NCBI RefSeq assembly: GCF_055900595.2
Contig: NZ_CM148325.1
DNA: 64,000 nt
Reading direction: 5' to 3' (one strand)
Made by a program: the position numbers and the translations under genes. Shown here piece after piece: positions 43,380-64,000 of this stretch. The stretch's first letter is position 1, and every line of letters begins with the position of its first letter. The notes under the pieces are model-generated. The model made no database searches. It saw only the letters and a list, made by a program, of their open reading frames with translations, and was not told where the DNA came from.

Positions 43380-44645
43380 TTACGGTTTGAAGTCCAATGG
43401 CGCATTTTTGAACACTTCATATACTGCCTGGCTTGGTGGTTTCGGGATCTTCGCAAGTTTAGCTGCTGCCAACGCAGCCTGACAAAGTGCGGGATCGCCA
43501 CCTTCAGGTTTGATATCCAGTAACATACCATCGGGTGCCAGTTTTATGCGCAGCGTACAGGTCTTGCCTGCATAGGACGATGCGTCATAGAACTTACTTT
43601 CGATAGCAGATTTAATCTGCCCGGCATAGTTATTGATATCGGCCCCTGATGCGCCATTGTTTTTAGTATTACCACTCCCGGCAGGCGAAGCATTGTTCCC
43701 TTTCGCCCCTCCCCCCGTTTTCGGTGCATTCTTACCAGAGCTTAGCTCACCGAAAATATCATCTGCCTCTGCGGCAGCTTTTGCTGCAGCGGCTTTTTCA
43801 GCTGCAGCTTTTGCCGCTGCCGCTTTTTTGTCTGCGGCGGCTTTTTCTGCCGCTGCTTTCTTATCAGCTGCTGCCTTTTCAGCAGCCGCTTTTTCTGCTG
43901 CTTTTTTGTCGGCTGCAGCTTTCTCTGCCGCTGCTTTCTTATCAGCTGCAGCCTTTTCAGCAGCCGCTTTCTTCTCAGCTTCTGCCTTGGTTTTTTCAGC
44001 AGCTTCAGTTGCCGCTTTTTTTCTTGCTTCAGCTGCAGCTGCTTCTGCCGCTTCCGCTTTCTTCTTCAGCGCCGCAGCGGCTGCTTCGGCTTTTTTCTGC
44101 GCTTCGGCTGCGGCTTTGGCGGCTTCTGCTTCTGCTTTTTTCTTCGCGTCTGCAGCCGCTTTCTTCGCTGCTTCTTCCGCAGCTTTTGCATCCGCTTCAG
44201 CCTTCGCTTTAGCATCTGCCGCCGCTTTCGCTGCCGCCTCTTCCGCTTGCTTCTGCTTTAACTCGGCCTGTTTTGCGGCTTCTTCAGCCTGCTTTTTCTG
44301 CTCCTGAGCCGCTAACCGCTCTTTCTCAAGTTGCTTCAGGCGTTCCTGTTCAGCCGCTTGTTTCTCACGCAGTTCTTCCGCAGCCTGCTGTTCCTTCATC
44401 TTGCGCTGCTCATCAGAACGCTTCGCGCTTGATTCCTGGCTTTGCATGCGTTTGTACTGCTCAACTACCGCACCTGAATCAACCATTACAGCGTCGATGG
44501 ACGAACCACCGCCGCCTCCGGCTGAAGCTTCTATATTCTCATCGAACGAACTCCAGATCAGCGCCGCAAATAAGATGACATGCAGCACTGCTGAAATAAT
44601 TATCGCCCGCTTGAGCTTGTCGTTTTGTTCGGTTGCCTTTGACAC
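43380..44645 (-). CDS. tolA: Tol-Pal system protein TolA
   Basis: N-terminal TM, long Ala/Lys/Glu-rich helical domain II, C-terminal domain III. Confidence 0.9.
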   Translation of the reverse strand: MSKATEQNDKLKRAIIISAVLHVILFAALIWSSFDENIEASAGGGGGSSIDAVMVDSGAVVEQYKRMQSQESSAKRSDEQRKMKEQQAAEELREKQAAEQERLKQLEKERLAAQEQKKQAEEAAKQAELKQKQAEEAAAKAAADAKAKAEADAKAAEEAAKKAAADAKKKAEAEAAKAAAEAQKKAEAAAAALKKKAEAAEAAAAEARKKAATEAAEKTKAEAEKKAAAEKAAADKKAAAEKAAADKKAAEKAAAEKAAADKKAAAEKAAADKKAAAAKAAAEKAAAAKAAAEADDIFGELSSGKNAPKTGGGAKGNNASPAGSGNTKNNGASGADINNYAGQIKSAIESKFYDASSYAGKTCTLRIKLAPDGMLLDIKPEGGDPALCQAALAAAKLAKIPKPPSQAVYEVFKNAPLDFKP

Positions 44646-47960: not shown

Positions 47961-49529
47961 TTAGCGTGCCGGCTGAGTAGTCGTGGAAGACTGCTCAAAG
48001 TGATAGCGACCGGTTTTCAGGCTGCTTGGGCCGAGGCGTGCAAACTTGAACATTAAGAACAATTCTGCCACCAGGAACAGGGTATACAGGCCACAAATCA
48101 GCACCATCGAGAAGATGAGGTCGCCTGCGGTCAGTGACGAGTTCGCTACAGCTGTCGGCAGCACTTCACCGATAGCCCAAGGTTGGCGACCATATTCAGC
48201 CACGAACCAGCCCGCTTCTACAGCAATCCACGGCAGCGGAATACCGTACAGTGCGGCGCGCAGCAGCCATTTTTTCTCGCCAATACGGTTGCGGATGACA
48301 CTCCAGAAAGAGAGCGCGATGATTGCCAGCAGCAGGAAGCCACACGCCACCATGATACGGAACGCGAAGTACAGCGGCGCTACACGTGGAATGGAGTCTT
48401 TGGTTGCCTGTTGAATCTGCGCTTCAGTTGCATCCGCCACGTTTGGCGTATAGCGTTTCAGCAGCAGACCGTAACCGAGGTCTTTCTTCATGCTATTGAA
48501 CTGGTCACGAACCGCCTGGTCAGTAGAACCAGAACGCAGTTGCTCGAGCAGAGAGTACGCCTTCATCCCGTTACGGATGCGTTCTTCATGCTGCACCATC
48601 AGCTCTTTCAGGCCGATAACCGGGGTATCCACGGAACGCGTTGCAATGATGCCCAGCGCGTAAGGGATCTGGATCGCAAATTTGTTCGTCTCCTCTTCCT
48701 GATCAGGAATGCCGAACAGAGTAAAGGCAGCAGGTGCAGGTTGCGTTTCCCACTCGGCTTCAATAGCAGCCAGTTTGGTTTTCTGCACGTCGCCCATTTC
48801 ATAACCAGATTCATCACCCAGAACAATAACAGACAGAACGGCAGCCATACCGAAGCTGGCAGCGATAGCAAAGGAGCGTTTAGCAAAGGCGAAGTCACGA
48901 CCTTTCAACATATACCATGCGCTGATACCGAGGATGAACATCGCGCCAGTCACATAACCAGACGCTACAGTGTGAACGAATTTCACCTGAGCAACCGGGT
49001 TAAGCACCAGCTCGGAGAAGCTCACCATCTCCATACGCATAGTTTCAAAGTTGAAATCGGATGCGATTGGGTTTTGCATCCAGCCGTTCGCAACCAGAAT
49101 CCACAGTGCGGACAGGTTTGAACCAAGCGCCACCAGCCAGGTGACACACATATGCTGAACTTTACCCAGACGATCCCAACCGAAGAAGAACAGACCTACA
49201 AAGGTGGATTCGAGGAAGAAGGCCATCAGACCTTCGATTGCCAGCGGCGCACCGAAGATATCCCCTACATAGTGGGAATAGTAAGACCAGTTAGTCCCGA
49301 ACTGGAACTCCATGGTCAGACCGGTTGCCACACCCAGAGCGAAGTTGATACCAAACAACTTGCCCCAGAACTTGGTCATATCTTTATAAATCTGTTTGCC
49401 GGAAAGGACGTAGACCGTTTCCATAATGGCCAGCAGGAACGCCATACCGAGCGTCAGTGGCACAAAAAGGAAGTGGTACATCGCGGTCAAGGCAAACTGT
49501 AAGCGCGACAGTTCGACTATATCTAACAT
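47961..49529 (-). CDS. cydA: Cytochrome bd-I oxidase subunit I
   Basis: 522 aa from [24 protein letters not shown]. Confidence 0.93.
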
Positions 49530-49866
49530 CATGACTCCTTGCTCATCGCATGAAGACTCCGAGAGTGAACCCCGTTAGAAAGGGTCACACGCATGCCCCA
49601 ATACAAAATTATTTGCTCGCCTCTATCGCTGTCTTTTCCTCAAAAGTGGAAAAGACAATGATAAAAAAGTTACAAATATGTTAATGAATAAACCAAATTG
49701 ATCCCGTAATTATATTACGCCGCAAAATCCTTACAATAAACAGGTTTTTATTGAGCAAATTTGCATTTTTCGACAGTGATCAATTTATAGCGAAATTGTC
49801 ACGCCCCCACCAATTTGATCTACGACAATTTATCGTGTTTTGCAGATTTTTTTCAAGAATTAAAAA

Positions 49867-49880
49867 TTGATTAATATCAA
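49867..49880. promoter_or_regulatory. FNR-type box in the cydA upstream regulatory region
   Basis: TTGATTAATATCAA (TTGAT-N4-ATCAA) inside the long AT-rich cydA leader. Confidence 0.5.
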
Positions 49881-50332
49881 AATCAATCGAATATGTTAAT
49901 TATGTATAAATCATAGACCATTGGTAATTTTATTGTTAATTTATTGTGAAATATTTACGTAACACAATTATTACAATAAAAAGACATAGATAAAAAACCA
50001 GTGTTTTATTTAACAGAATCGCCTTATCAACTTTTTATAATACCAATTGATTAGAGTAGCCAATTTGTTGCTATTTTACATAACATATTTTTATCAAAGT
50101 TAATTGATTGTTGCCTTTATGAGCATCGCCGTAAGACCGCCATGTTATTGTTTCATTTGTAATAATCACCAATAAGTATCGATGAGAGAGATATCGCTTA
50201 ACAGAGGCGACTGTGTCTGCATGAACACAGGCACTTTCGTCTGATAAACGAAAAATGAGCGATTTTTGCAAGTTAGTTTTTCTATAGCCGGGTACGCTGA
50301 GCGCCTCGCTTGATTACAATGAGGTTGCTGCC

Positions 50333-51277
50333 ATGGGTCTTGATAATATAGGTTATGTTGTCAATCGCTTCTCTGGTTGGCCATCAAATGATCCTCTAAA
50401 AACAGATAACGAATCAATGACATCACCCGTGACTGTGCAGGTAATAAAGTTGATTGCCGCCATCCTTGACCCACATCGGATAGTCGTTGGTATCGATACA
50501 CTTTATACAACGCAGCGCAAAACATTTACCTCAGAGGGTCAACAACTCATTGAATCAGCATTGAAAACACTTAATGTGATGAATTTAAATAACCTGGAAA
50601 CAGATCGCGATGAGGAGGGTAACTATCTGGCTTTTGGATATAACGTTGACACTCCTGACAGAATAACCGTTTCTGCTTATAATGAAAAAAAACCTTTCTG
50701 TTATGGCCAATGTCTTTTAATACAGGATGAAGAACCAGATTTATTTAACCTGGTAAAAATTAAAACCTTTGAAGCCAGGCATAATTATGTTTCTAAATTG
50801 ATGAGCGATCCGGAATTTATGTTTAAATTCAGTTATAGCACCCAACAAAATAGATTAGAACCTCATCTTCTGGTTCCCACTTATTTCCCTCTAAAAACAA
50901 ACCAACCGGTTACGCTAGAGGATGTACTGATACTTTATCGTTTCTTTAAAATGAATGGCGATTTTAATATATTAACATCAGATGAATACATGAGTATCAT
51001 GACACCTCTGATGAAGTGTGAGCGTAGTGTCCACGACCATAACAGGTATGTGACGGGCAAAGATGCTCTTCTTCTGGACAATCCTCCGTCTGGTAACCAG
51101 ATATATTTCCATATTTCCCCTGACGAATCAGCAACACTTGTCCTTTATTTTTCAGACAATAACCTTGAATCCTTCGTCTTTGAAAATGATATTCCGAGCC
51201 AGTATCGACATTTCAAAATGTTTACCAATTTAGCACTAGTTATTGATCAGTTAACCGACGCCAATCAAATACTTTAA
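50333..51277 (+). CDS. Hypothetical protein (314 aa), AT-rich
   Basis: Long ORF with GAGGT SD; no recognised motif, TM segment or signal peptide. Confidence 0.6.
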   Translation: MGLDNIGYVVNRFSGWPSNDPLKTDNESMTSPVTVQVIKLIAAILDPHRIVVGIDTLYTTQRKTFTSEGQQLIESALKTLNVMNLNNLETDRDEEGNYLAFGYNVDTPDRITVSAYNEKKPFCYGQCLLIQDEEPDLFNLVKIKTFEARHNYVSKLMSDPEFMFKFSYSTQQNRLEPHLLVPTYFPLKTNQPVTLEDVLILYRFFKMNGDFNILTSDEYMSIMTPLMKCERSVHDHNRYVTGKDALLLDNPPSGNQIYFHISPDESATLVLYFSDNNLESFVFENDIPSQYRHFKMFTNLALVIDQLTDANQIL

Positions 51278-51356
51278 TTTTCTATACAGCCCTGTGTAAA
51301 ATATTGCTAATCAGTGCCCGGGGTTGATTTTTATTCCTCACGGTGATATTTAAATC

Positions 51357-51779
51357 ATGACCCCATCTCAGCTCTCTTTTAATACTCTTCCTGTCAATGC
51401 AACATGCACTTCAGAGATAACAGTAAACACACAAAAATTCTCTGACATCCTCTACTCAGTGGGGTATTCCCTAAAGGATCTGGCTTATCTGAGCAGATGT
51501 CTTGCATCATTACACCCGACACTCGCCAAAAACATTTATGAAACGGAAAATCTCAGCGATCAAAAATTACTTTATATAGATTGCCGTAGTACAAATGAAA
51601 TCAAGATAAATATCTTTTTTGGTCAGCAACGAGAAGGATTAATTGAAATTAGTTCTGACACAGTCATTTTTTCGATACTGTCTTCATTGATTGACTCAGC
51701 TATTTCTGAACATCGACATCAAATCACCATTAACGATTCAAATAATTCTGAACTATTTTATGAGGATTATACTGATTAA
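51357..51779 (+). CDS. Hypothetical protein (140 aa), AT-rich
   Basis: ORF directly downstream of the 314-aa ORF, same strand; no recognised motif. Confidence 0.55.
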   Translation: MTPSQLSFNTLPVNATCTSEITVNTQKFSDILYSVGYSLKDLAYLSRCLASLHPTLAKNIYETENLSDQKLLYIDCRSTNEIKINIFFGQQREGLIEISSDTVIFSILSSLIDSAISEHRHQITINDSNNSELFYEDYTD

Positions 51780-52321
51780 ATCCACTCTGTGCGAACCTGT
51801 CCTGCATTTATGCCAGAAGTATTAGAATCTTTGATTAACGTTACTCGTACTGGTAGCACCTTCATGTGCCTCTCTTTTTTACGAACAATCAAAAGAACTA
51901 ACAAAGGGCATAATTCGTATAAATCATTAACCATTTGTTATATTCAACATTTTTTTACATTAAGCAGAGATGAATTGCAGTGAAATTCAAGTTAAATTTT
52001 ACAAAATGTATTACTCATGGCTAAAAAATCTCCCCAAAATGCAAATTAGAAGTTGATCACAATTATCTCAATACATCAAATAAAGTTAATTTTAAAAATT
52101 TAACATTCATGACATTAGTTGACATAACACGCTGAATTAAAATGAGAATTTAAAAACACACTTTAAACAATCATTTCCCGAAAGACATTTTGAAAATAGA
52201 TCAATTGCAACATTACGGTCAGATAAAGACACTCCTCTGATATTAAACCTGTGCCGTTATGAACGGCCATAAATACGACGTGTGTAACTTAATTTACTCT
52301 CTGTCTTACAAAGGATTACCC

Positions 52322-52771
52322 ATGAAGAAAGCAACACTTGTGATTGGCGTTATTGGCGCGGACTGCCATGCAGTAGGCAATAAAGTTCTGGACCGCGTTT
52401 TTAGCAACCATGACTTCAGAGTCATTAATCTGGGCGTAATGGTCAGCCAGGACGAATATATTGATGCTGCCATTGAAACTGGCGCTGACGCGATTGTCGT
52501 CTCCTCTATCTATGGGCATGGCGATATCGATTGTCTGGGCATGCGCGAACGCTGCATCGAGCGTGGGCTGGGTAACATCCTGCTCTATGTGGGCGGTAAC
52601 CTGGTGGTCGGAAAACATGACTTCGCTGACGTGGAAACCAAGTTCAAAGAGATGGGATTTGATCGCGTCTTTTCCCCAAGTCATGACTTAGAAGATGTTT
52701 GTCAGCTGATGGCCCACGATATCAACCAACGTCATGACGTTGATACTCGCATTCTTGAAGAGGCAATCTGA
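52322..52771 (+). CDS. Glutamate mutase sigma (B12-binding) subunit
   Basis: 149 aa; cobalamin-binding DxHxxG motif (DCHAVG); followed by L and E subunits. Confidence 0.85.
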
Positions 52772-54159
52772 TGCAAATCGTCTCTGTCGATATTGGATCG
52801 ACGTGGACCAAAGCAGCCCTCTTCACCCGGGAGGGGGACGCGTTAACGTTGGTTAACCACGTTCTGACCCCAACCACCACCCATCATCTGGCGAAGGGGT
52901 TTTTCTCCAGCCTGGACCAGGTGTTAAACGTAGATGATGCCCTCCCCCTGTTAAACAGTGGTGAGGTTGCATTGAAGTATTCCTCCTCTGCCAAAGGTGG
53001 GCTGGCGGTTGCCGCAATGGGATTAGTGCCTTCTATCACTCTGGAAACCGCGAAAGTAACCGCTCACTCTGCGGGTGCTAAAATTGCGCAATATTACGCC
53101 TACAAGCTGAACCGCCGTGATATCCAGGCACTGGAAGAAACGCAGCCCGATATTCTCTTGTTCACCGGCGGCACCGACGGCGGAGAAGAAAGCTACGGAC
53201 TGAATAACGCCCGTGTGCTGGCAGAATCCAAACTCGACTGCGCCATTATTTATGCCGGAAACCGGGATATTCAGGACAAGGTGCAGGAGATCCTCGGGCA
53301 TAAAGACCTGACCATCGTCGACAACGTTCTGCCCGATCTTGACCATCCGAACCCTTTAGCTGCACGCCAGGCTATCTGCGACATATTCCTTAAACGCATC
53401 GTTAAAGGGAAAGGGCTGGATGTCATTGTTGATAAAACAGGCGAAGAACCAATGCCGACACCATGGACGGTCTTTGAACTGGTTAAGGCAATCAGTAACG
53501 TCGATCACAGCTGGAAAGAGTTCATGCTGATCGACATGGGCGGCGCAACCACCGATGTCTATTCCGCCTGTGCCAACACGCTCTCGCCCGACACTGTTTT
53601 ACATGGCGTACCGGAACCCTTCGTAAAACGGACGGTGGAAGGCGATCTGGGAATGCGCGTCTCGGCAATGGTGGTTGGTGAAAGTGCGAAAGAGTTAGTC
53701 AGTGTGAATTTTGCTCAGCAACCCGCACAGTTGGACGCTTTTTATCATTACCTCCGTCATCTAGTCGCTCATCCCGACTACTTACCCGCGAATGCAGATG
53801 AAAAATATTTCGATACCGTCCTGGCCGGACTGTGTGTGGGTTATGCCACCGAAAGACATGCGGGCACCAAAAAAGAGGTCTGCACCTGCGTCGGCAATGT
53901 CGATTTACAGATGGGACGTGACCTGACAACCGTGCGTAAAGTCGTGGGTTCCGGCGGATGGCTCTCGCGTGCCAGTCAGTTCGATATGCATCGCTGGTTG
54001 AAATACCGCGAGTTAAACGACGACGGTAAACGCATTCTCTTACCGACCGAATTTGAATATTACCGCGATTCCCGGGGGCTATTACCACTGCTGGCAAACG
54101 TCGCCAGAGTCGATCCGCTGGCCGCCGCGCGCACCAGTATTCAATGCTTAACCCTATAA
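52771..54159 (+). CDS. Glutamate mutase-associated L protein (MutL/GlmL-type ATPase chaperone)
   Basis: 462 aa, ASKHA-type N-terminus (VDIGSTWTKAA), between S and E subunits. Confidence 0.8.
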   Translation: MQIVSVDIGSTWTKAALFTREGDALTLVNHVLTPTTTHHLAKGFFSSLDQVLNVDDALPLLNSGEVALKYSSSAKGGLAVAAMGLVPSITLETAKVTAHSAGAKIAQYYAYKLNRRDIQALEETQPDILLFTGGTDGGEESYGLNNARVLAESKLDCAIIYAGNRDIQDKVQEILGHKDLTIVDNVLPDLDHPNPLAARQAICDIFLKRIVKGKGLDVIVDKTGEEPMPTPWTVFELVKAISNVDHSWKEFMLIDMGGATTDVYSACANTLSPDTVLHGVPEPFVKRTVEGDLGMRVSAMVVGESAKELVSVNFAQQPAQLDAFYHYLRHLVAHPDYLPANADEKYFDTVLAGLCVGYATERHAGTKKEVCTCVGNVDLQMGRDLTTVRKVVGSGGWLSRASQFDMHRWLKYRELNDDGKRILLPTEFEYYRDSRGLLPLLANVARVDPLAAARTSIQCLTL

Positions 54160-54177
54160 CAATTAAGGCTGCAATCA

Positions 54178-55623
54178 ATGGAACTTCGAAATAAGAAATT
54201 AACCCATGACGAATTCATGACCGAGCGGCAACAGGTATTGAAAACCTGGGAAACCGGCAAGGATGTTGAAAACTTTGAAGATGGCGTTAAATACCAACAA
54301 ACCATTCCTGAGCATAAACGCTTCTCTCTTGCCCTGCTGAAAGCAGACAAGGAAGGTAAAACCCTTAGCCAACCGCGCGCAGGCGTGGCGCTGATGGACG
54401 AACACATCGAACTACTGAAAACACTACAAGAAGAGTGCGATCTGCTGCCGAGCACTATCGATGCATATACCCGTCTGAATCGGTACGAAGAAGCGGCTGT
54501 AGGGATTAAAAAATCCATCGAAGCCAGAACCTCTAAACTGAACGGTTTACCGGTAGTTAACCACGGCGTCGCAGCTTGCCGTCGCCTCACCGAAACTCTG
54601 CAAAAACCGCTACAGATCCGCCACGGCACGCCAGATGCGCGTCTGCTGGCTGAAATCTCGATGGCCAGCGGCTTTACCAGTTATGAAGGCGGCGGCATTT
54701 CCTACAATATTCCGTATGCCAAGCGCGTAACGCTGGAAAAATCGATCCGCGACTGGCAGTACTGCGATCGTTTAATGGGGATGTACGAAGAACACGGGAT
54801 CCGCATCAACCCCGAACCGTTTGGCCCACTAACGGGTACGCTGATCCCGCCGTTTATCTCGCACTCTATCGCAATAATCGAAGGCTTGCTGGCACTGGAA
54901 CAGGGTGTGAAGTCTATCACCGTTGGTTATGGTCAGGTCGGTAGCCTGACGCAGGATGTTGCGGCGATCCAGTCTCTGCGGGAACTTGCACACGAATACT
55001 TTCAGAGCTATGGCTATACCGACTACGAATTAAGTACCGTGTTTCACCAGTGGATGGGCGGCTTTCCGGAAGACGAATCGAAAGCGTTCGCCATTATCTC
55101 CTGGGGTGCTGCCGTCGCGGGGATGTCTGGTGCTACCAAAGTCATCACCAAAAGTCCGCACGAAGCCTGGGGCATCCCGACTGCTGCTGCCAACATTCAG
55201 GGGCTAAAAGCCTCCCGCCAGATGCTCAACATGGTCAACGAGCAGAAATTCCCGCCGTGCCCGGCGGTTGAACTAGAAATTGAACTGATTAAGAGCGAGG
55301 TTCGCGCGGTACTGAACAAAGTGTTCGAACTGGGTAATGGTGATATTGCGCGCGGTACGGTGCTGGCATTTGAAGCGGGCGTACTGGATGTGCCGTTTGC
55401 GCCAGCCGCCTGCAACGCAGGCAAAATTCTTCCGGTCCGTGACAACACTGGCGCGATTCGCGTACTGGAGGCCGGAGCCGTTCCATTGCCAAAAGATATT
55501 CTCGACCTCCACCACGATTACGTTGCTGAACGCGCGCGCTTTGAAGGACGCCAACCGACATTCCAGATGGTTGTAGATGACATCAATGCTGTATCCCACA
55601 GTAAATTAATAGGAAGACCATAA
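54178..55623 (+). CDS. glmE: Glutamate mutase epsilon (catalytic) subunit
   Basis: 481 aa, TIM-barrel mutase signature; coupled to methylaspartase. Confidence 0.88.
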   Translation: MELRNKKLTHDEFMTERQQVLKTWETGKDVENFEDGVKYQQTIPEHKRFSLALLKADKEGKTLSQPRAGVALMDEHIELLKTLQEECDLLPSTIDAYTRLNRYEEAAVGIKKSIEARTSKLNGLPVVNHGVAACRRLTETLQKPLQIRHGTPDARLLAEISMASGFTSYEGGGISYNIPYAKRVTLEKSIRDWQYCDRLMGMYEEHGIRINPEPFGPLTGTLIPPFISHSIAIIEGLLALEQGVKSITVGYGQVGSLTQDVAAIQSLRELAHEYFQSYGYTDYELSTVFHQWMGGFPEDESKAFAIISWGAAVAGMSGATKVITKSPHEAWGIPTAAANIQGLKASRQMLNMVNEQKFPPCPAVELEIELIKSEVRAVLNKVFELGNGDIARGTVLAFEAGVLDVPFAPAACNAGKILPVRDNTGAIRVLEAGAVPLPKDILDLHHDYVAERARFEGRQPTFQMVVDDINAVSHSKLIGRP

Positions 55624-56864
55624 TGAAAATAAAACAGGCCCTTTTTACCGCTGGCTACTCCTCATTCTATTTCGATGATCAGCAGGCGATAAAAAACGGA
55701 GCGGGTCACGACGGTTTTTTTTATACCGGGGAGCCAGTAACACAGGGGTTTAACGCCGTACGTCAGGCCGGGGAGTGCGTTTCGGTTCAGTTGATTCTGG
55801 AAAACGGTGCGGTCGCCGTAGGCGACTGTGCTGCCGTACAGTATTCCGGGGCAGGTGGTCGCGATCCACTGTTCCTCGCAGAGCACTTTATTCCGTTCCT
55901 CAACGACCATATCAAGCCATTACTGGTAGGCCGCGATGTGGATGCTTTCCTGCCGAATGCCCGTTTCTTCGACAAATTGCGTATTGACGGCAACTTGCTA
56001 CATACCGCCGTGCGCTACGGATTATCACAGGCGCTGCTTGATGCTACCGCGCTGGCAACCGGCCGTCTGAAAACTGAAGTGGTCTGTGATGAATGGCAGT
56101 TGCCACGCGTGGCGGAATCCATTCCATTATTTGGTCAGAGCGGCGACGATCGATATATCGCTGTCGATAAGATGATCCTTAAGGGCATCGACGTGCTGCC
56201 CCATGCGCTGATTAATAACGTCGAAGAGAAACTGGGCTTTAAAGGTGAAAAACTGCGCGAATATGTCCGCTGGCTGTCGGATCGCATTCTGAGCAAGCGC
56301 ACCAGCGCACGCTACCACCCTACCCTGCACATCGATGTATACGGCACTATTGGTCTGATCTTCGATATGGATCCGCTTCGCTGTGCGCAATACATCGCCA
56401 GTCTGGAAAAAGAGGCGCAAGGCCTGCCGCTCTACATTGAGGGGCCGGTCGATGCCGGTAACAAGCCCGATCAAATCCGCCTGCTGACCGCGATTACCAA
56501 AGAGCTGACGCGCCTCGGTTCCGGCGTGAAAATCGTGGCCGATGAATGGTGTAACACCTACCAGGATATTGTTGATTTCACTGATGCCGCCAGTTGCCAC
56601 ATGGTGCAAATCAAAACCCCGGATCTGGGCAGTATTCACAACATCGTCGATGCAGTTCTTTATTGCAACAGCCACAGCATGGAAGCGTACCAGGGCGGCA
56701 CCTGCAATGAAACTGATGTCAGTGCCCGCACCTGTGTCCACGTCGCCCTTGCTGCTCGCCCCATGCGTATGCTGGTAAAACCAGGGATGGGCTTTGACGA
56801 AGGCCTCGATATCGTCTTCAACGAAATGAATCGTACTATCGCGCTGTTGCAGGCTAAGGATTAA
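55623..56864 (+). CDS. 3-methylaspartate ammonia-lyase (enolase superfamily)
   Basis: 413 aa; start overlaps glmE stop. Confidence 0.88.
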   Translation: MKIKQALFTAGYSSFYFDDQQAIKNGAGHDGFFYTGEPVTQGFNAVRQAGECVSVQLILENGAVAVGDCAAVQYSGAGGRDPLFLAEHFIPFLNDHIKPLLVGRDVDAFLPNARFFDKLRIDGNLLHTAVRYGLSQALLDATALATGRLKTEVVCDEWQLPRVAESIPLFGQSGDDRYIAVDKMILKGIDVLPHALINNVEEKLGFKGEKLREYVRWLSDRILSKRTSARYHPTLHIDVYGTIGLIFDMDPLRCAQYIASLEKEAQGLPLYIEGPVDAGNKPDQIRLLTAITKELTRLGSGVKIVADEWCNTYQDIVDFTDAASCHMVQIKTPDLGSIHNIVDAVLYCNSHSMEAYQGGTCNETDVSARTCVHVALAARPMRMLVKPGMGFDEGLDIVFNEMNRTIALLQAKD

Positions 56865-56867
56865 CAA

Positions 56868-58238
56868 ATGGCTCGTTCTTTTAAAGTCTTATCGCCAACG
56901 GCAATCCTCGGGTATGGATTCCCGGAAGAGAGCTTCCGCAAAGCGATGGCAGAATCGCCCGATCTGATCGCCGTTGATGCAGGCTCTTCCGATCCTGGCC
57001 CCCACTACCTCGGGGCGGGCAAACCGTTTACCGATCGCGCAGGGGTCAAGCGCGATCTACGCTATATGATCACCGCAGGCGTGCAAAATAATATACCGGT
57101 AGTGATCGGAACGGCCGGCGGTTCTGGTGCCGCTCCACACCTGGAGTGGTGCCGAGAAATAATTCATGAGATTGCCCGGGAAGAGCACCTCGCGTTCTCG
57201 ATGGCGCTGATCCCGGCAGACGTTGACAAAGCCATCGTCCACCAGGCGCTGGATAACGGCAAAATCACGGCGCTGGATTTTGTCCCGCCGTTAACCCACG
57301 ACGCGATTGACGAAAGTACGTATATCGTCGCGCAAATGGGCATCGAACCCTTCCAGCAGGCGCTGAAAGAAGGCGCGCAAGTGGTGCTGGGCGGGCGCGC
57401 TTACGACCCGGCCTGCTTTGCTGCGCTACCGATCATGCAAGGCTTTGATGAAGGTCTGGCGCTGCATTGTGGGAAAATCCTTGAATGCGCGGCAATCGCC
57501 GCAACGCCCGGCTCAGGCTCTGACTGTGCGATGGGCATCATTGATGACAACGGCTTTACGCTGAAGACATTTAATCCGAAGCGTAAATTTACCGAAACGT
57601 CAGCGGCTGCACACACACTGTATGAGAAATCCGATCCCTACTTTCTGCCAGGACCTGGCGGCGTGCTAAACCTGAAAGGTTGCACATTTAAAGCGATCAA
57701 TGATGGCGAAGTTTACGTCAGCGGTTCTAAGCATGAAGAAACGCCCTATGCCCTGAAACTGGAAGGTGCGCGGCGGGTGGGTTTCCGCTGTTTGACCATC
57801 GCCGGAACGCGCGACCCGATCATGATCGCCGGGATCGATAACATCATCGATGAAGTCAAAACCAGCGTTTCGCGTAATCTGTCCTTAGACGATGACAGCA
57901 TTCGCATCAATTTCCACCTGTACGGCAAAAACGGGGTGATGGGCGACCATGAACCGATGCAAACTGCCGGGCATGAGCTGGGGATTGTCCTTGATGTAGT
58001 TGCACCGACCCAGGATATTGCCAATAGCGTTTGCTCGCTGGTGCGCTCTACCATGCTGCACTACGGCTATGAAAACCGCATCGCTACCGCAGGCAACCTG
58101 GCGTTCCCGTTCTCCCCTTCTGATATCCAGGGCGGGCCGGTATACGAATTTTCCATATATCACCTGATTGAAGCCAACGACGCTCTGCGTTTTGATTTCC
58201 ATATTGAACAGGTGACGCCAGAAGGAGTTCAGGCATGA
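56868..58238 (+). CDS. DUF1446 (AtuA-like) family protein, function unknown
   Basis: 456 aa; N-terminal pattern recalled for AtuA-like proteins; coupled to next ORF. Confidence 0.65.
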   Translation: MARSFKVLSPTAILGYGFPEESFRKAMAESPDLIAVDAGSSDPGPHYLGAGKPFTDRAGVKRDLRYMITAGVQNNIPVVIGTAGGSGAAPHLEWCREIIHEIAREEHLAFSMALIPADVDKAIVHQALDNGKITALDFVPPLTHDAIDESTYIVAQMGIEPFQQALKEGAQVVLGGRAYDPACFAALPIMQGFDEGLALHCGKILECAAIAATPGSGSDCAMGIIDDNGFTLKTFNPKRKFTETSAAAHTLYEKSDPYFLPGPGGVLNLKGCTFKAINDGEVYVSGSKHEETPYALKLEGARRVGFRCLTIAGTRDPIMIAGIDNIIDEVKTSVSRNLSLDDDSIRINFHLYGKNGVMGDHEPMQTAGHELGIVLDVVAPTQDIANSVCSLVRSTMLHYGYENRIATAGNLAFPFSPSDIQGGPVYEFSIYHLIEANDALRFDFHIEQVTPEGVQA

Positions 58239-58552
58239 AACAGTCAATTGTCTCACTGGCGCAAGTCATTCGTTCGAAAAATGCCGGACCTTACGAACTG
58301 GTTTTAGATATTTTATTTAAAACCAAAGAAAACTATGAGCGAGTAAAATCATCAGGGCAATTAACCCCAGAACTGATTGCGCGCTTATATCATGTTGAAC
58401 CTGACTTTATTCATCGTATTGTCTGGTTTGATCCTTCTAACGCAGTAAAAATTGTCATGCCACGAGATATTATCTCCGGGAATGTAGGTGACAATGATGT
58501 CTATGGCGCACAGCAACATGCACCTTTATTAAATATGAGTTTCGATTTGTAA
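58235..58552 (+). CDS. DUF4387-like small protein, partner of the DUF1446 protein
   Basis: 105 aa; start overlaps upstream stop. Confidence 0.55.
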   Translation: MKQSIVSLAQVIRSKNAGPYELVLDILFKTKENYERVKSSGQLTPELIARLYHVEPDFIHRIVWFDPSNAVKIVMPRDIISGNVGDNDVYGAQQHAPLLNMSFDL

Positions 58553-58712
58553 AAATCCGAACACTTTTAGCCAACTGACATCCCGTCACTTATTGCAGCT
58601 CAACACTTCAGCTATTTGTAAGGTTGTTATAGCAGGTAGATGCCTGAATCTCTATTCAGGCATCCACTTCTCCTGATTCTGATTTATCGCCGTGCACCTG
58701 ATGGAGGAAAAA

Positions 58713-59993
58713 ATGAAGAAAATAAGTTTAACCACGATGATTCTTTTGGCGCTGGTACTTGGAATGATTATCGGCGTAGTGCTCAATAACACTGCTTCAC
58801 CGGAAACAGCAAAACTCTATGCGCAAGAAATATCGATATTCACGACGATTTTCTTACGACTGATAAAAATGATTATCGCTCCGTTAGTGGTCTCTACCCT
58901 GGTGGTAGGTATTGCTAAAATGGGCGATGCCAAAGCCCTTGGTCGTATTTTTTCTAAAACACTCTTTTTATTTATTTGCGCCTCATTGCTGTCAATTGCC
59001 TTAGGCTTGATAACGGTAAATTTCTTCATGCCAGGCACAGGAATTAATTTTGTTGCACACGGTGCCGAAACCACCGGAGTGGTCGCGTCAGAACCCTTTA
59101 CACTAAAAGTATTTATTTCGCATGCTTTCCCCACCAGCATTGTCGATGCCATGGCGCACAATGAAATTTTGCAAATCGTGGTGTTCTCAATTTTCCTCGG
59201 CTGTAGCCTGACGGCGATTGGTGAGAAAGGCAGCGCCATCGTTCACGCCTTAGATTCGCTGGCACATGCCATGTTAAAGCTCACTGGCTACGTCATGCTC
59301 TTCGCTCCCCTGACCGTATTCGCCGCTATTTCAGCATTGATTGCTGAACGAGGACTGGCAGTTATGGTGAGCGCCGGGATCTTTATGGGTGAATTTTATT
59401 TCACCATGTTATTACTTTGGGTGCTGCTTATCGGTCTGGCCATCGTTTATGTCGGCCCCTGCATCAGACGCCTGACCCGCGCCCTTTCTGAACCCGCCCT
59501 GCTGGCATTTACCACATCCAGTTCTGAAGCTGCTTTTCCGGGAACGCTTGAAAAACTGGAGCAATTTGGCGTTTCCCCCAAAATTGCCAGCTTTGTCTTA
59601 CCCATTGGCTACTCATTTAATCTCGTTGGATCAATGGCCTACTGCTCCTTCGCCACAGTTTTCATCGCCCAGGCCTGCAATATCCATTTATCCATCGGTG
59701 AGCAAATCACCATGCTGTTGATCCTGATGTTGACCTCGAAAGGAATGGCTGGCGTACCACGCGCCTCAATGGTGGTTATCGCCGCCACGCTCAACCAGTT
59801 CAATATTCCGGAAGCGGGGCTGATCTTGCTGATGGGCGTTGATCCGTTCCTTGATATGGGGCGTTCCGCGACAAACGTCATGAGCAACGCAATGGGCGCT
59901 GCGATGGTGAGTCGGTGGGAAGGCGAACATTTCGGCGAGGGTTGTCGGGGTAAAGCATTAAAACCCAATGAATCGAACGTTGCTCTGCCCTGA
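58713..59993 (+). CDS. Dicarboxylate/amino acid:cation symporter (GltP/DctA family)
   Basis: GGAGG SD; polytopic membrane protein with DAACS-type motifs. Confidence 0.8.
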   Translation: MKKISLTTMILLALVLGMIIGVVLNNTASPETAKLYAQEISIFTTIFLRLIKMIIAPLVVSTLVVGIAKMGDAKALGRIFSKTLFLFICASLLSIALGLITVNFFMPGTGINFVAHGAETTGVVASEPFTLKVFISHAFPTSIVDAMAHNEILQIVVFSIFLGCSLTAIGEKGSAIVHALDSLAHAMLKLTGYVMLFAPLTVFAAISALIAERGLAVMVSAGIFMGEFYFTMLLLWVLLIGLAIVYVGPCIRRLTRALSEPALLAFTTSSSEAAFPGTLEKLEQFGVSPKIASFVLPIGYSFNLVGSMAYCSFATVFIAQACNIHLSIGEQITMLLILMLTSKGMAGVPRASMVVIAATLNQFNIPEAGLILLMGVDPFLDMGRSATNVMSNAMGAAMVSRWEGEHFGEGCRGKALKPNESNVALP

Positions 59994-60100
59994 GGGGGAT
60001 CTTAAGAAATCAGAAGCCAATGACTACGCATTTTTATAAGCCGGATCATGAAGTTAGACGGCAATTAAGTAACACTAACGTTTAAGGTGAAAAGTGAAAT

Positions 60101-61753
60101 ATGTCCAAACCATTTATCTGGCAAGAACCGTTTCTACAAAATAAAGACGGTACAGAATATACATTAATTAGCGATCAACATATTACAGTAACGGAATTAG
60201 ACGGCGAAGAAGTAATAAAAATCGCTCCTGAAGCATTAACGCTGCTTGCCCGGCAGGCATTTTATGAAGCCTCTTTTTTCTTACGTTCCGCTCATTTGCA
60301 ACAGGTCGCCAGCATTCTTAACGATCCGCAGGCCAGCAGTAATGATAAATACGTTGCGTTGCAGTTATTACGTAATGCTGAAGTCTCAGCAAAAGGGGTA
60401 TTACCCAACTGTCAGGATACCGGCACCGCAACTATTGTTGCCAGTAAAGGGCAACAGATATGGACGGGAGGTAACGACGCTGAAGCCTTAAGCAAAGGCA
60501 TTTACAGTACTTTCCAGGAAAATAATCTGCGCTTTTCACAAAATGCGCCGCTGGATATGTATACCGAAGTCAATACGCAAACCAATCTTCCGGCGCAGAT
60601 TGATATCAGCGCTGTCGCTGGTAATGAGTACCATTTTCTCTGTGTTAATAAAGGGGGCGGCTCCGCCAATAAAGCTGCACTTTATCAGGAAACCAAATCC
60701 TTATTGCAACCAGAAAAACTGACCGCATTTTTAATCGACAAAATGAAATCGTTGGGCACGGCCGCCTGCCCGCCCTACCACATCGCCTTTGTCGTCGGAG
60801 GGCTTTCAGCCGATCAAACCTTAAAAGTTGCCAAGCTGGCCTCTACGAAATATTACGACAATTTGCCCACCAGCGGAAACGAGCAGGGACAAGCATTCCG
60901 TGATATTGAGCTGGAAAAAGCGTTGCTCGAAGCCAGTCAGCAATTTGGTATTGGTGCGCAATTTGGGGGTAAATATTTCGCTCATGATATTCGCGTCATT
61001 CGTCTGCCGCGTCACGGTGGCTCCTGCCCGATAGCTATGGCGCTCTCCTGTTCTGCCGATCGCAATATCAAAGCCAAAATTAACAAGCACGGTATCTGGC
61101 TGGAAAAACTCGAACACAATCCGGGGCAATATATTCCAGCCTCATTGCGGGAAGAAAATCACTCGCTACATGTACACCTGGATCTAAACCGTCCGTTGCG
61201 TGACGTGATGCAGGATCTCGCCAGATTACCGGTAGGTACCCGCGTGTCGTTAAGTGGTCCCATCGTAGTGGCGCGCGATATCGCCCACGCAAAAATAAAA
61301 GCGCGGCTGGATAGCGGCGAATCGATGCCGGATTACCTGAAGCATCATATTGTCTATTACGCTGGCCCGGCGAAAACACCGGAGAACATGGCCTGCGGTT
61401 CACTGGGTCCAACCACGGGCGGTCGAATGGACGGTTATGTCGAAACCTTCCAGGCGGCTGGCGGCAGTCTGGTAATGTTATCGAAAGGTAACCGCAGCCA
61501 GCAGGTCACCGATGCCTGTCACAAACATGGCGGCTTCAATCTGGGAAGTATTGGCGGTGCAGCTGCGTTACTGGCGCAAGAATATGTCAAAAGTCTGCGT
61601 TGCCTGGAATACCCGGAGCTGGGTATGGAGGCGGTGTGGATGATGGAAGTGGAAAATCTGCCCGCATTCATCCTGGTTGATGATAAAGGCAATAATTTCT
61701 TTAGCCAGTTTGAGCAGCAACACCGCTGCGCCAGTTGCCCTGCGGGACATTAA
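60101..61753 (+). CDS. fumD: Class I (Fe-S) fumarate hydratase paralogue, likely mesaconase
   Basis: 550 aa, strongly FumA-like along full length; name fumD is from memory of the O157 mesaconase. Confidence 0.8.
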
Positions 61754-61762
61754 GGAAAATGA

Positions 61763-62365
61763 ATGGAAGCGCGAATTTCAACTGAACGGCATGTGCAGCG
61801 CCAGCAGAAATTGAAGGAACAGGTCGATACGCGCGTCGCGGCGGCGATAGAGAAAAAAGGGATCTTGATTGTTTTCACCGGCAACGGCAAAGGGAAATCC
61901 ACTGCCGCGTTTGGTACTGTAACGCGCGCGGTGGGCCATGGCAAAACGGTGGGGGTTGCGCAGTACATCAAGGGGCAATGGGACAACGGCGAATACAATC
62001 TTCTCCAGCCGCTGGGAGTGGAGTTTCATATTATGGGAACCGGTTTTACCTGGGAGACACAGAACCGGCAAGCGGATATCGATGCGGCGAAAGAGGTCTG
62101 GTCGGAAAGCAAACGGATGCTGGCTGACAAGCGTTACGACTTAGTGGTGCTTGATGAGCTCACCTATATGCTGGCTTACCATTATCTGGATACAGAAGAA
62201 GTGATCACTTCTCTGCAAAACCGTCCGGCACAACAAAGTGTCATTGTCACCGGACGCGGTTGCCACAGTCAGATATTAAAAATGGCGGATACGGTAAGTG
62301 AAATCCGCCCCGTCAAACATGCTTTTGATAACGGCATTCAGGCCCAGCCGGGGATCGACTGGTAA
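61763..62365 (+). CDS. Corrinoid adenosyltransferase (BtuR/CobA family)
   Basis: 200 aa; P-loop GNGKGKSTAAFG; strongly BtuR-like. Confidence 0.88.
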   Translation: MEARISTERHVQRQQKLKEQVDTRVAAAIEKKGILIVFTGNGKGKSTAAFGTVTRAVGHGKTVGVAQYIKGQWDNGEYNLLQPLGVEFHIMGTGFTWETQNRQADIDAAKEVWSESKRMLADKRYDLVVLDELTYMLAYHYLDTEEVITSLQNRPAQQSVIVTGRGCHSQILKMADTVSEIRPVKHAFDNGIQAQPGIDW

Positions 62366-62368
62366 TAA

Positions 62369-62400
62369 CTGCGCCTGGCATCCCGCCAGGCGCAGGTTTT
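62369..62400. terminator. Bidirectional terminator between convergent genes
   Basis: 10-bp stem CTGCGCCTGG/CCAGGCGCAG with T-run. Confidence 0.5.
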
Positions 62401-63304
62401 ACATCTCCTGCGGTACGACCGATTTCGCCAGCAACCATTCACGAAATTGCTGCAAGTGCGGAGAGTCAGACTTCTCTTCCTGCCACGTCATAATAAAACG
62501 ATTACCGGTACGAATAGGCACATCACAGGGAATCACCATATCGCCACTATCCAAATCATGTTGAATAGCGAACCGTGGTAACAGCGCCACGCCGAGATTA
62601 GAGCGCACGGCGGCAATCAGCATTGAAAGCAAATCGAAACGTGGTCCGTTATTGACCAGCGGACTGCTAACGCCAGATAAAGCAAACCACTCTTCCCAGC
62701 CAGTAATACGGGTGCTTTGATGCAGAAGTGGTAACTCAGTAAGCAGTTCTGCCACTGACAGTTTTTGATCGGACATTGCAAGCAAACTGCCGCTGCATAC
62801 CGGCAAAATCTCCTCTTCAAAGAGATATTCTACTTCCGCCCAGGGCGCGCAAAAATTTTCGCGCATAATGACAGCATCGTACTCCCGATTAAGAAAATCG
62901 CCGTTATTAGCTAAAGAATGAATATTAACAATAATATCGGGATGTAACTTTGTGAATTCATGTAAATTTGGGATTAACCAGTGGGTACTAAAAGTAGGAT
63001 TAACGGCAAGTTCAATAACCTGAACCGTAGGCTGCCATGTCATAATCGTATTGGTATCGCGCTCCAGCTTATTTAATGTTTCTTTTACTATCCCCAGGTA
63101 ATACTTCCCTGCATCATTAAGAAAAATGCGTTTTTTAGAGTGTGAAAATAACGGAGTATGTAAAAATTCCTCCAGCGCACTTACTTGTCTGAATACAGCA
63201 CTTTGGGTTAACGCTAACTCCTCTGCCGCTCTGGTATAACTTTCATGTCGTGCGACGACCTCAAAAGTCACCAGCAGCTCCGTTTTAGGTATTTTTCCTC
63301 GCAT
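62399..63304 (-). CDS. LysR-family transcriptional regulator (likely regulator of the island operon)
   Basis: N-terminal HTH (ESYTRAAEELALTQSAVFRQV); start taken at second ATG. Confidence 0.8.
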   Translation of the reverse strand: MRGKIPKTELLVTFEVVARHESYTRAAEELALTQSAVFRQVSALEEFLHTPLFSHSKKRIFLNDAGKYYLGIVKETLNKLERDTNTIMTWQPTVQVIELAVNPTFSTHWLIPNLHEFTKLHPDIIVNIHSLANNGDFLNREYDAVIMRENFCAPWAEVEYLFEEEILPVCSGSLLAMSDQKLSVAELLTELPLLHQSTRITGWEEWFALSGVSSPLVNNGPRFDLLSMLIAAVRSNLGVALLPRFAIQHDLDSGDMVIPCDVPIRTGNRFIMTWQEEKSDSPHLQQFREWLLAKSVVPQEM

Positions 63305-63517
63305 AATGCCGTCCGTGAAAAAATAACAATTCAAAAATTATTTTATAAAAAACAGTAGCACTAATGAATATCATAATTCAAATAAACAAACCAGTCAGCT
63401 ATATGTCTAACCAGGAAAATAAAGTGACAATAATCCTAAAACAGGAATTTCACCTCAGTTATCCGCATGCAATACTTTAAAGCTATTATTGCAAGAATAT
63501 TATTCATATACATGAAT

Positions 63518-63641
63518 ATACTCTAAATAAGTCAAGTTGCAGGAAGGGAACAAATAATGAATATCCAGAAGCTTACATAAGTAAGTGACCTGGGTGAGCG
63601 AACATCGATGCAGCACATGCAACTTGAATTATGACAAGTAT
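63518..63641. repeat. ERIC element (second copy, with internal substitution/insertion)
   Basis: Shares both arms with the 17481..17605 copy. Confidence 0.65.
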
Positions 63642-63892
63642 ACAATGATAAATTTATATACCCTATGTTATATATTATCTATGTCCGGTTAAATTGAATG
63701 AGTCATAGCCTTAAAAGACTTCACAAAAGATAATTCCTCTTTAACAATAAGCCAGATTTACCACTTGTAAAACTTGCTATCGCTGCATACACTACGCGCG
63801 TTTTCTTTCCCTTTTGCTGGCTGCTGACCGGAAAGACAAAATTACCCTCGCAATACAGGGGGTTGATTAACGTCTATATTTCAGGACAGCGT

Positions 63893-64000
63893 TATGCATC
63901 ATCTTTCAAGGCTTGATAAAGCCTTTCTGCGCAAAGGGATCCAACTTTCCCGCGCCAACAATATTGTTTCATTATGTCGTCCATCAGGAGCCAGTGCCCG
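63893..64000 (+). CDS. Possible 5-prime end of an unidentified gene running off the window
   Basis: ATG with AGGA upstream and open frame to window end; not recognised. Confidence 0.25.

Follow-up and report, generated by a model that had tools for sequence, protein, structure and literature searches.

The DNA analysed here, referred to as the window, is a stretch of 64,000 nucleotides from contig NZ_CM148325.1 (NCBI RefSeq assembly GCF_055900595.2), and our subject is a pair of AT-rich open reading frames, ORF1 and ORF2, that lie in it between the region upstream of cydA and the glutamate-fermentation operon (glm/mal/fumD). Our results favor the view that the pair is an old insertion restricted to Escherichia and made up of two bona fide orphan genes with no detectable relatives elsewhere, and we consider this reading likely. 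According to it, the insert has been inherited vertically since before the split of E. coli and E. albertii, and was then lost or replaced in several lineages.

ORF1 (50333-51277, + strand, 945 nt) encodes 314 amino acids (aa) and ORF2 (51357-51779, + strand, 423 nt) encodes 140, with a gap of 79 bp between them. An earlier note on this DNA, made from the letters alone, had described two same-strand reading frames of these lengths, and they were found as described; RefSeq labels both 'hypothetical protein'. The note was equally right about their position, between the cydA leader (the upstream region 49533-50332) and the glutamate mutase operon (glmS-glmL-glmE-mal). Along the window, cydA on the - strand is followed by ORF1, ORF2, glmS, glmL, glmE, mal, an atuA-like gene, a DUF4387 gene, a gltP-like gene, fumD and cobO, and then by a gene for a LysR-type regulator, on the - strand at the far end of the glm island, by rtcB and by sucD. 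The enzymes of this island are those of the methylaspartate pathway island treated by Kronen and Berg in 2015 (PMC4682846), a paper that does not treat ORF1 and ORF2. The impression that the pair is more AT-rich than its flanks is borne out by computation: the guanine-cytosine (GC) content is 37.5% in ORF1 and 35.2% in ORF2, against 49-53% in cydA, glmS, glmL and glmE and 49% over the whole window, and in sliding windows the pair runs at 0.33-0.41 while the flanking genes run at 0.49-0.57.

Pairwise BLAST limits delimit an islet-specific segment at 50170-52035 (+ strand, 1866 bp), whose GC content of 0.37 is well under the window average. To its left, BLAST boundaries and alignments place the cydA upstream (regulatory) region, 49533-50169, outside the insert; 49530-49908 is common to all genera examined, and 49909-50169 is common to Escherichia haplotypes without the pair (E1V33 and APEC O78). 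To its right extends the AT-rich spacer between ORF2 and glmS (51780-52321, + strand), the right part of which is the glm control region and lies outside the insert: from about 52036 on, E1V33 has the spacer as well, and the element at 52148-52208 before glmS shows conservation between genera. Where the islet segment sits, E1V33 holds an unrelated 451 bp. When species-representative genomes were scanned with GlmE, cydA and glmS were found as divergent neighbours without the pair in Citrobacter, Salmonella enterica subsp. arizonae, Klebsiella oxytoca, Pseudescherichia and Escherichia sp. E1V33, and the spacer in these five lineages measures 0.85-1.4 kb and holds no trace of ORF1 or ORF2. These comparisons indicate that the segment is an insert in an otherwise conserved divergent cydA-glmS intergenic region.

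In E. albertii both genes are found at the identical site. Between E. coli and E. albertii the synonymous divergence (dS) of ORF1 is 0.52-0.59, and that of the neighbouring glm genes is 0.65-1.1; in the comparison that takes in E1V33, the dS of the glm genes to E. coli is 0.44-0.53 for E1V33 and 0.67-1.1 for E. albertii. Since the ORF1 value is comparable to those of the neighbouring glm genes, vertical descent is indicated. The simplest history would be a single gain before the split of E. coli and E. albertii with a later loss in E1V33, because E1V33 is nearer to E. coli and yet E. albertii has the pair; in most E. coli the pair would have been lost later together with the glm island. The foreign origin that the earlier note read from base composition therefore holds only in the sense of an old insertion: absence from the five cydA-glmS lineages supports an insert, whereas the shared site and the vertical dS in E. 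albertii speak against recent acquisition, and neither mobile-element signatures nor phage or plasmid relatives were found to support it. The window annotation contains no integrase and no insertion sequence (IS) element near the pair, and the nearest tRNAs are 10 kb away. Searches with tblastn gave no match to the pair in 50,697 phage records, and a plasmid collection yielded just three E. coli entries, 0.7-4.9 Mb in size, that appear to be chromosomal sequence under a wrong label.

A direct repeat of 28 nt (82% identity), with copies at 49904-49931 and 51917-51944 that are 2013 bp apart, was considered as an insertion scar and rejected, its score being 33 against a maximum of 38 in shuffled sequence and the repeat not being conserved as such in E. 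albertii. Its copies fall on two breakpoints, namely the end of K-12/Salmonella/Klebsiella homology upstream of cydA and the restart of the E. albertii alignment after ORF2, but the repeat is probably due to chance.

Comparison of the locus across complete E. coli genomes found the pair in 1135 of 5426 (21%), including O157:H7, O55:H7 and O145:H28, and the glm genes likewise in 1135 of 5426. The carriers form two haplogroups, a rare 'window type' (18 genomes, 95.9-100% identity) and a common one (about 1109 genomes, 90-95% identity), with few intermediates. In the intermediate alleles ORF2 is much more diverged than ORF1 (in L090 the dS is 0.01 for ORF1 and 0.09 for ORF2), and this contrast suggests recombination within the islet.

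That the two reading frames code for proteins is supported by their lengths and by the way they have evolved. When the 1866-bp islet was simulated 5000 times with a first-order Markov model, the longest reading frame had a mean of 81 aa and a maximum of 206 aa, and the second-longest never reached 140 aa, so that the lengths of ORF1 and ORF2 are far past chance. ORF1 aligns between E. coli and E. albertii without a gap across 314 residues and with blocks of invariant residues, at an identity of 85-97% among E. coli alleles and 62-63% to E. albertii. By Nei-Gojobori estimates, the ratio of nonsynonymous to synonymous divergence (dN/dS) of ORF1 is 0.41 between the window and O157:H7 (P=2.5e-4 for dN < dS) and 0.39-0.43 against E. 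albertii (P=2.9e-9). The ratio for ORF2 is 0.40 overall (P=5.7e-3), and it falls to 0.10 within E. coli (P=5e-5) in a constrained core of codons 45-118 (51489-51710, + strand), while the C-terminal tail is unconstrained. Both frames are intact and of the same length in nine of nine E. coli alleles; seven of these are further alleles drawn from both haplogroups of the locus, with pairwise dN/dS of 0.14-0.61. ORF1 is also intact in all four E. albertii-type loci. By these data both are genuine protein-coding genes under purifying selection.

The selection is nevertheless looser than around them. The flanking cyd and glm genes have dN/dS of 0.00-0.15, and at the protein level both ORFs evolve 3- to 40-fold faster than their neighbours. 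Nucleotide identity to O157 is 85-95% in the pair against 96-100% in the flanks, and dS to O157 is 0.17-0.20 against 0.05-0.14 in the neighbours. Because dN/dS is high while selection is still at work, the raised divergence of this stretch mostly reflects relaxed protein constraint and not a separate origin. A McDonald-Kreitman-type comparison gave no sign of positive selection, since the polymorphism ratio (Pn/Ps 61/36) resembles the divergence ratio (Dn/Ds 122/65).

Both products are acidic and soluble, with isoelectric points of 4.84 (ORF1) and 4.61 (ORF2). As the earlier note had it, they have no transmembrane-like segment (the maximum Kyte-Doolittle mean over 19 residues is 1.35 for ORF1 and 1.52 for ORF2) and no assignable motif, for Pfam returned no match for either protein even at E<=10. 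In PADLOC-DB neither protein matched any family at E<=1, NCBIfam and PHROGs gave no meaningful match, and nothing under E=0.78 was found among PDB sequence profiles. Confident homology to characterised proteins, for which the profile hidden Markov model searches of both proteins were run, was thus not found. A word-indexed search of 5.8 billion clusters matched only E. coli, E. albertii and Shigella, and hmmsearch with the ORF1 profile, run exhaustively over 1.84 billion representatives, gave 14 matches, all of them short fragments of the same family; the ORF1 family is in this sense restricted to Escherichia, and ORF2 likewise represents an orphan family. Three apparently distant matches to ORF2 (44-60% identity) were discarded as frameshifted copies from error-prone or fragmentary assemblies. 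Across sources the relatives are all named 'hypothetical' or 'uncharacterized'. AlphaFold2 models built on shallow alignments reached a predicted local distance difference test (pLDDT) score of 41.7 for ORF1 and 58.3 for ORF2, with the ORF2 core modelled as helix-helix-strand-strand-strand-helix at pLDDT of about 70-80. An internal triplication, in which two strand-strand-strand-helix modules of ORF1 would correspond to the ORF2 core, was rejected as far as sequence goes (hhalign probability <=4%, Smith-Waterman z <=0).

The 88 bp directly before ORF1 (50245-50332, + strand), a putative promoter and 5' untranslated region, are 84% identical to E. albertii, compared with an identity of 65% in 50170-50244 and of 76% in the coding sequence of ORF1. 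A Shine-Dalgarno-like GAGG, AAGG in E. albertii, is placed 8 nt before the ATG of ORF1, and conservation of the 88 bp with retention of this site points to a maintained expression signal. On the + strand from ORF1 to glmS no terminator-like site was found except one within ORF1. Rfam has no family in 49400-52500, which includes the absence of a cobalamin riboswitch upstream of the B12-dependent mutase. ORF1 and ORF2 would form a single transcription unit driven from the conserved 88 bp, because they share a strand and are 79 bp apart, no terminator-like site intervenes and the ORF1 5' region is conserved. The unit would be bound by H-NS and largely silenced like other AT-rich DNA of E. coli, and so be expressed only conditionally. 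Both products are predicted to be cytoplasmic, where they would probably act through protein-protein interaction and not as a known enzyme, toxin or DNA-binding regulator.

The relation between the two genes is best seen where one of them has been lost. In each of the three sequenced E. albertii loci examined (3/3), codon 36 of ORF2 is an in-frame TGA that no canonical start follows, while ORF1 is intact. Among the E. albertii alleles ORF1 differs per pair by about 4 synonymous and 5 nonsynonymous changes, and so few differences would still indicate constraint. In an E. albertii-like lineage (L003), ORF1 is intact beside cydA, but ORF2 has lost its 3' half and the glm island is gone entirely. 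Since ORF1 has been kept without a functional ORF2 in the one case and without glm in the other, we conclude that it acts autonomously, independent of both ORF2 and the glm operon, with ORF2 as a dispensable accessory. The same observations argue against an obligate toxin-antidote pair, because the E. albertii ORF1 is intact while ORF2 has a stop, and against a dedicated glm accessory, because L003 keeps ORF1 without the glm operon.

The earlier note had proposed a toxin-immunity, regulator or defence module, and neither these proposals nor a secretion effector with its chaperone stands up well: each fails at least one of the tests run, and all are of low probability. That one product is toxic and its neighbour neutralises it would fit two adjacent, AT-rich, fast-evolving genes on one strand with a patchy distribution, and ORF2 has the small size and the acidity of many antitoxins and immunity proteins. 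However, Pfam, NCBIfam and PADLOC searches found no toxin, antitoxin or immunity domain, sizes of 314 and 140 aa with a 79-bp gap are atypical for type II modules, and neither a polymorphic-toxin gene nor any phage or true plasmid copy is associated with the pair. The E. albertii loci, with ORF1 intact and constrained beside a stopped ORF2, are hard to reconcile with ORF2 as the obligate antidote of an ORF1 toxin, and the antidote is not kept in L003 either, where ORF1 is intact and ORF2 truncated; the reverse arrangement, with ORF2 as the toxin, leaves the conservation of ORF1 after loss of ORF2 unexplained. We therefore hold a toxin-antitoxin or toxin-immunity pair to be very improbable. A novel two-gene anti-phage defence module is a highly unlikely reading as well. 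Many defence systems are made up of orphan families, and accessory AT-rich genes without known function in 21% of E. coli would suit one, but PADLOC gave no match, and Pfam searches found no nuclease, ATPase, NTPase, TIR or similar effector domain. The surroundings are no defence island or mobile element but the cydABX-ybgE genes and the glm/mal/fumD operon, with tRNAs 10 kb off, and a fixed chromosomal site with vertical inheritance since before the E. coli/E. albertii split contrasts with defence genes, which typically turn over rapidly. As for a type III secretion effector (ORF1) with a class I chaperone (ORF2), the 140 aa and isoelectric point of 4.6 of ORF2 are chaperone-like, the N-terminus of ORF1 is rich in Ser, Thr, Asn and Pro, and the genes are AT-rich and confined to Escherichia, E. 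albertii included; the Escherichia lineages with the pair carry the ETT2 and/or LEE secretion systems. The test of ORF2 for a class I chaperone family or fold came out negative, and we give this reading very little credence.

A regulator or accessory factor dedicated to the glutamate-fermentation operon, or to cydAB, would explain why the pair stands directly upstream of glmS on the same strand, with no terminator-like site between ORF2 and glmS, and why it co-occurs perfectly with the glm operon in E. coli (1135 genomes each). But physical linkage accounts for that co-occurrence within E. coli, and the operon does without the pair in five other lineages, its own promoter-proximal element being conserved there. 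The island already has its LysR-type regulator, L003 holds ORF1 after loss of the whole glm island, and Pfam searches found no DNA-binding domain (helix-turn-helix, winged helix-turn-helix, ribbon-helix-helix or similar) in either protein, so that a dedicated role of this kind is quite unlikely. It could also be argued that the two frames are functionless remnants, persisting by chance or decaying. Their dN/dS of 0.4 is high beside the 0.00-0.15 of the neighbours, E. albertii has an inactivated ORF2, there are variants of ORF2 with a C-terminal frameshift, 79% of E. coli lack the locus, and the structure models are of low confidence. The selection data contradict this reading: dN is significantly under dS in both genes, the ORF2 core evolves at a dN/dS of 0.10, and over a dS of about 0.55 ORF1 has stayed at exactly 314 codons with neither indel nor stop, although AT-rich DNA readily gives rise to stop codons. 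When the possibility of degraded genes was checked, the nine of nine intact E. coli alleles and the purifying selection spoke for functional genes, and we regard remnants as an unlikely explanation.

The reading of an old insertion with two orphan genes should be held with some caution, since several results weigh against it. About 79% of complete E. coli genomes lack the pair, and dN/dS values of 0.4-0.6 are high, so the function may be marginal. The exhaustive profile search covered ORF1 only, and the finding that ORF2 has no distant relative comes from the word-indexed search with its profile; given the low confidence of the AlphaFold2 models, a known fold could have been overlooked. A simple consensus scan found no sigma-70 promoter upstream of ORF1, the Shine-Dalgarno sequence of ORF2 is poor, and H-NS binding and silencing is plausible from AT-rich composition alone. 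The searchable literature contained no paper with the inferred locus tags; neither did it contain one tying H-NS to the glm island. A further possibility, which we regard as fairly unlikely, is that the pair represents two founding protein families whose folds may be new and which either originated within Escherichia, maybe de novo from AT-rich non-genic DNA, or were so remodelled there that their kin can no longer be recognised. ORF1 would then have an autonomous lineage-specific function, for example in microaerobic or anaerobic gut physiology, an example that the site between cydAB and the glutamate-fermentation operon suggests; or else the pair would be an unrecognised defence or host-interaction module.

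Among known systems, the pair most resembles the orphan genes (ORFans) of enterobacteria, which are common in the E. coli accessory genome. Like these it has no homolog outside one genus despite very large searches, and it is AT-rich, evolves faster at the protein level than core genes, is patchily distributed and is annotated as hypothetical. ORFans are typically short, whereas ORF1 is long (314 aa), and the pair is old and sits at a fixed site between core operons and not in a prophage. It also shares features with the AT-rich islets that are targets of H-NS, namely a GC content of 35-37% in a genome of roughly 50% and its nature as an insert relative to sister genera, and it adjoins the promoter region of cydAB, itself targeted by H-NS in K-12. 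It differs from them in having no integrase, IS element, tRNA site or convincing flanking repeats, and in its long vertical residence as judged by dS. With type II toxin-antitoxin and toxin-immunity pairs it has in common adjacent co-oriented genes, one of them small and acidic, and an accessory distribution, but it matches none of their families, its sizes and spacing are atypical, and in E. albertii it is the putative antidote that has gone and the larger partner that is still intact. COMM-domain-like strand-strand-strand-helix modules were also counted among the closest known systems.

The DNA around the pair gave some observations of its own. The 380 bp directly upstream of cydA (window 49530-49911; K-12 L089:5231-5609) exist in two deeply diverged E. 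coli haplotypes. The K-12 type is 78-80% identical to the versions of the window, O157, APEC O78, E1V33 and E. albertii, and it stands at about the same distance from the versions of Citrobacter, Salmonella and Klebsiella, although the CydA protein shows no difference. Regulation of cydAB has mostly been studied in K-12, and what was learned there may fail to transfer to strains of the other upstream haplotype. Further upstream, 470-590 bp from cydA, a non-coding block of roughly 100 bp (50001-50120) is 88% conserved with E. albertii and is also present in Escherichia haplotypes without ORF1 and ORF2, and it is absent from K-12. It contains GTTAATTGATTGTTG, which is similar to the ArcA box consensus and serves as a lead only.

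The whole interval from cydA to sucD (window 49533-64000; loci L088, L089, L003 and L020) behaves as a multi-allelic slot. It is filled by ORF1, ORF2 and the glm island in the window, by the mannosylglycerate genes mngB-mngA in K-12, by a gene for a TPR protein in APEC O78:H4 and by one for a 258-aa protein with a signal-peptide-like N-terminus in L003. In Citrobacter sedlakii, mngB-mngA-mngR stand exactly between cydA and glmS, that is, in the slot of ORF1 and ORF2. The element 52148-52208 upstream of glmS, which contains ATTTTGAAAATAGATCAATTG, shows no variation among Escherichia, Citrobacter and Salmonella, in contrast to the remaining spacer, which cannot be aligned; the element probably serves the glutamate-fermentation operon as operator or promoter core. 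Elsewhere in the window, tolA (43800-44100) shows an in-frame length difference of about 81 nt from O157:H7 (1266 and 1185 nt as annotated), presumably in its repetitive central region.

In conclusion, the presented data remove three tempting labels, toxin-antitoxin, defence and glm regulator, for annotation pipelines and for readers. Known biology is unchanged until a phenotype is found, and it would take proof of a phenotype, of a new fold or of a de novo origin to raise interest in the pair. If our reading is correct, the pair is a clean and datable example of Escherichia orphan genes that had been fixed between two core operons by the time E. coli and E. albertii diverged, that have kept a low GC content and evolve quickly while selection on them persists, and of which ORF2 decays independently of ORF1. 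It would thus offer a convenient case for how lineage-restricted genes persist and act.

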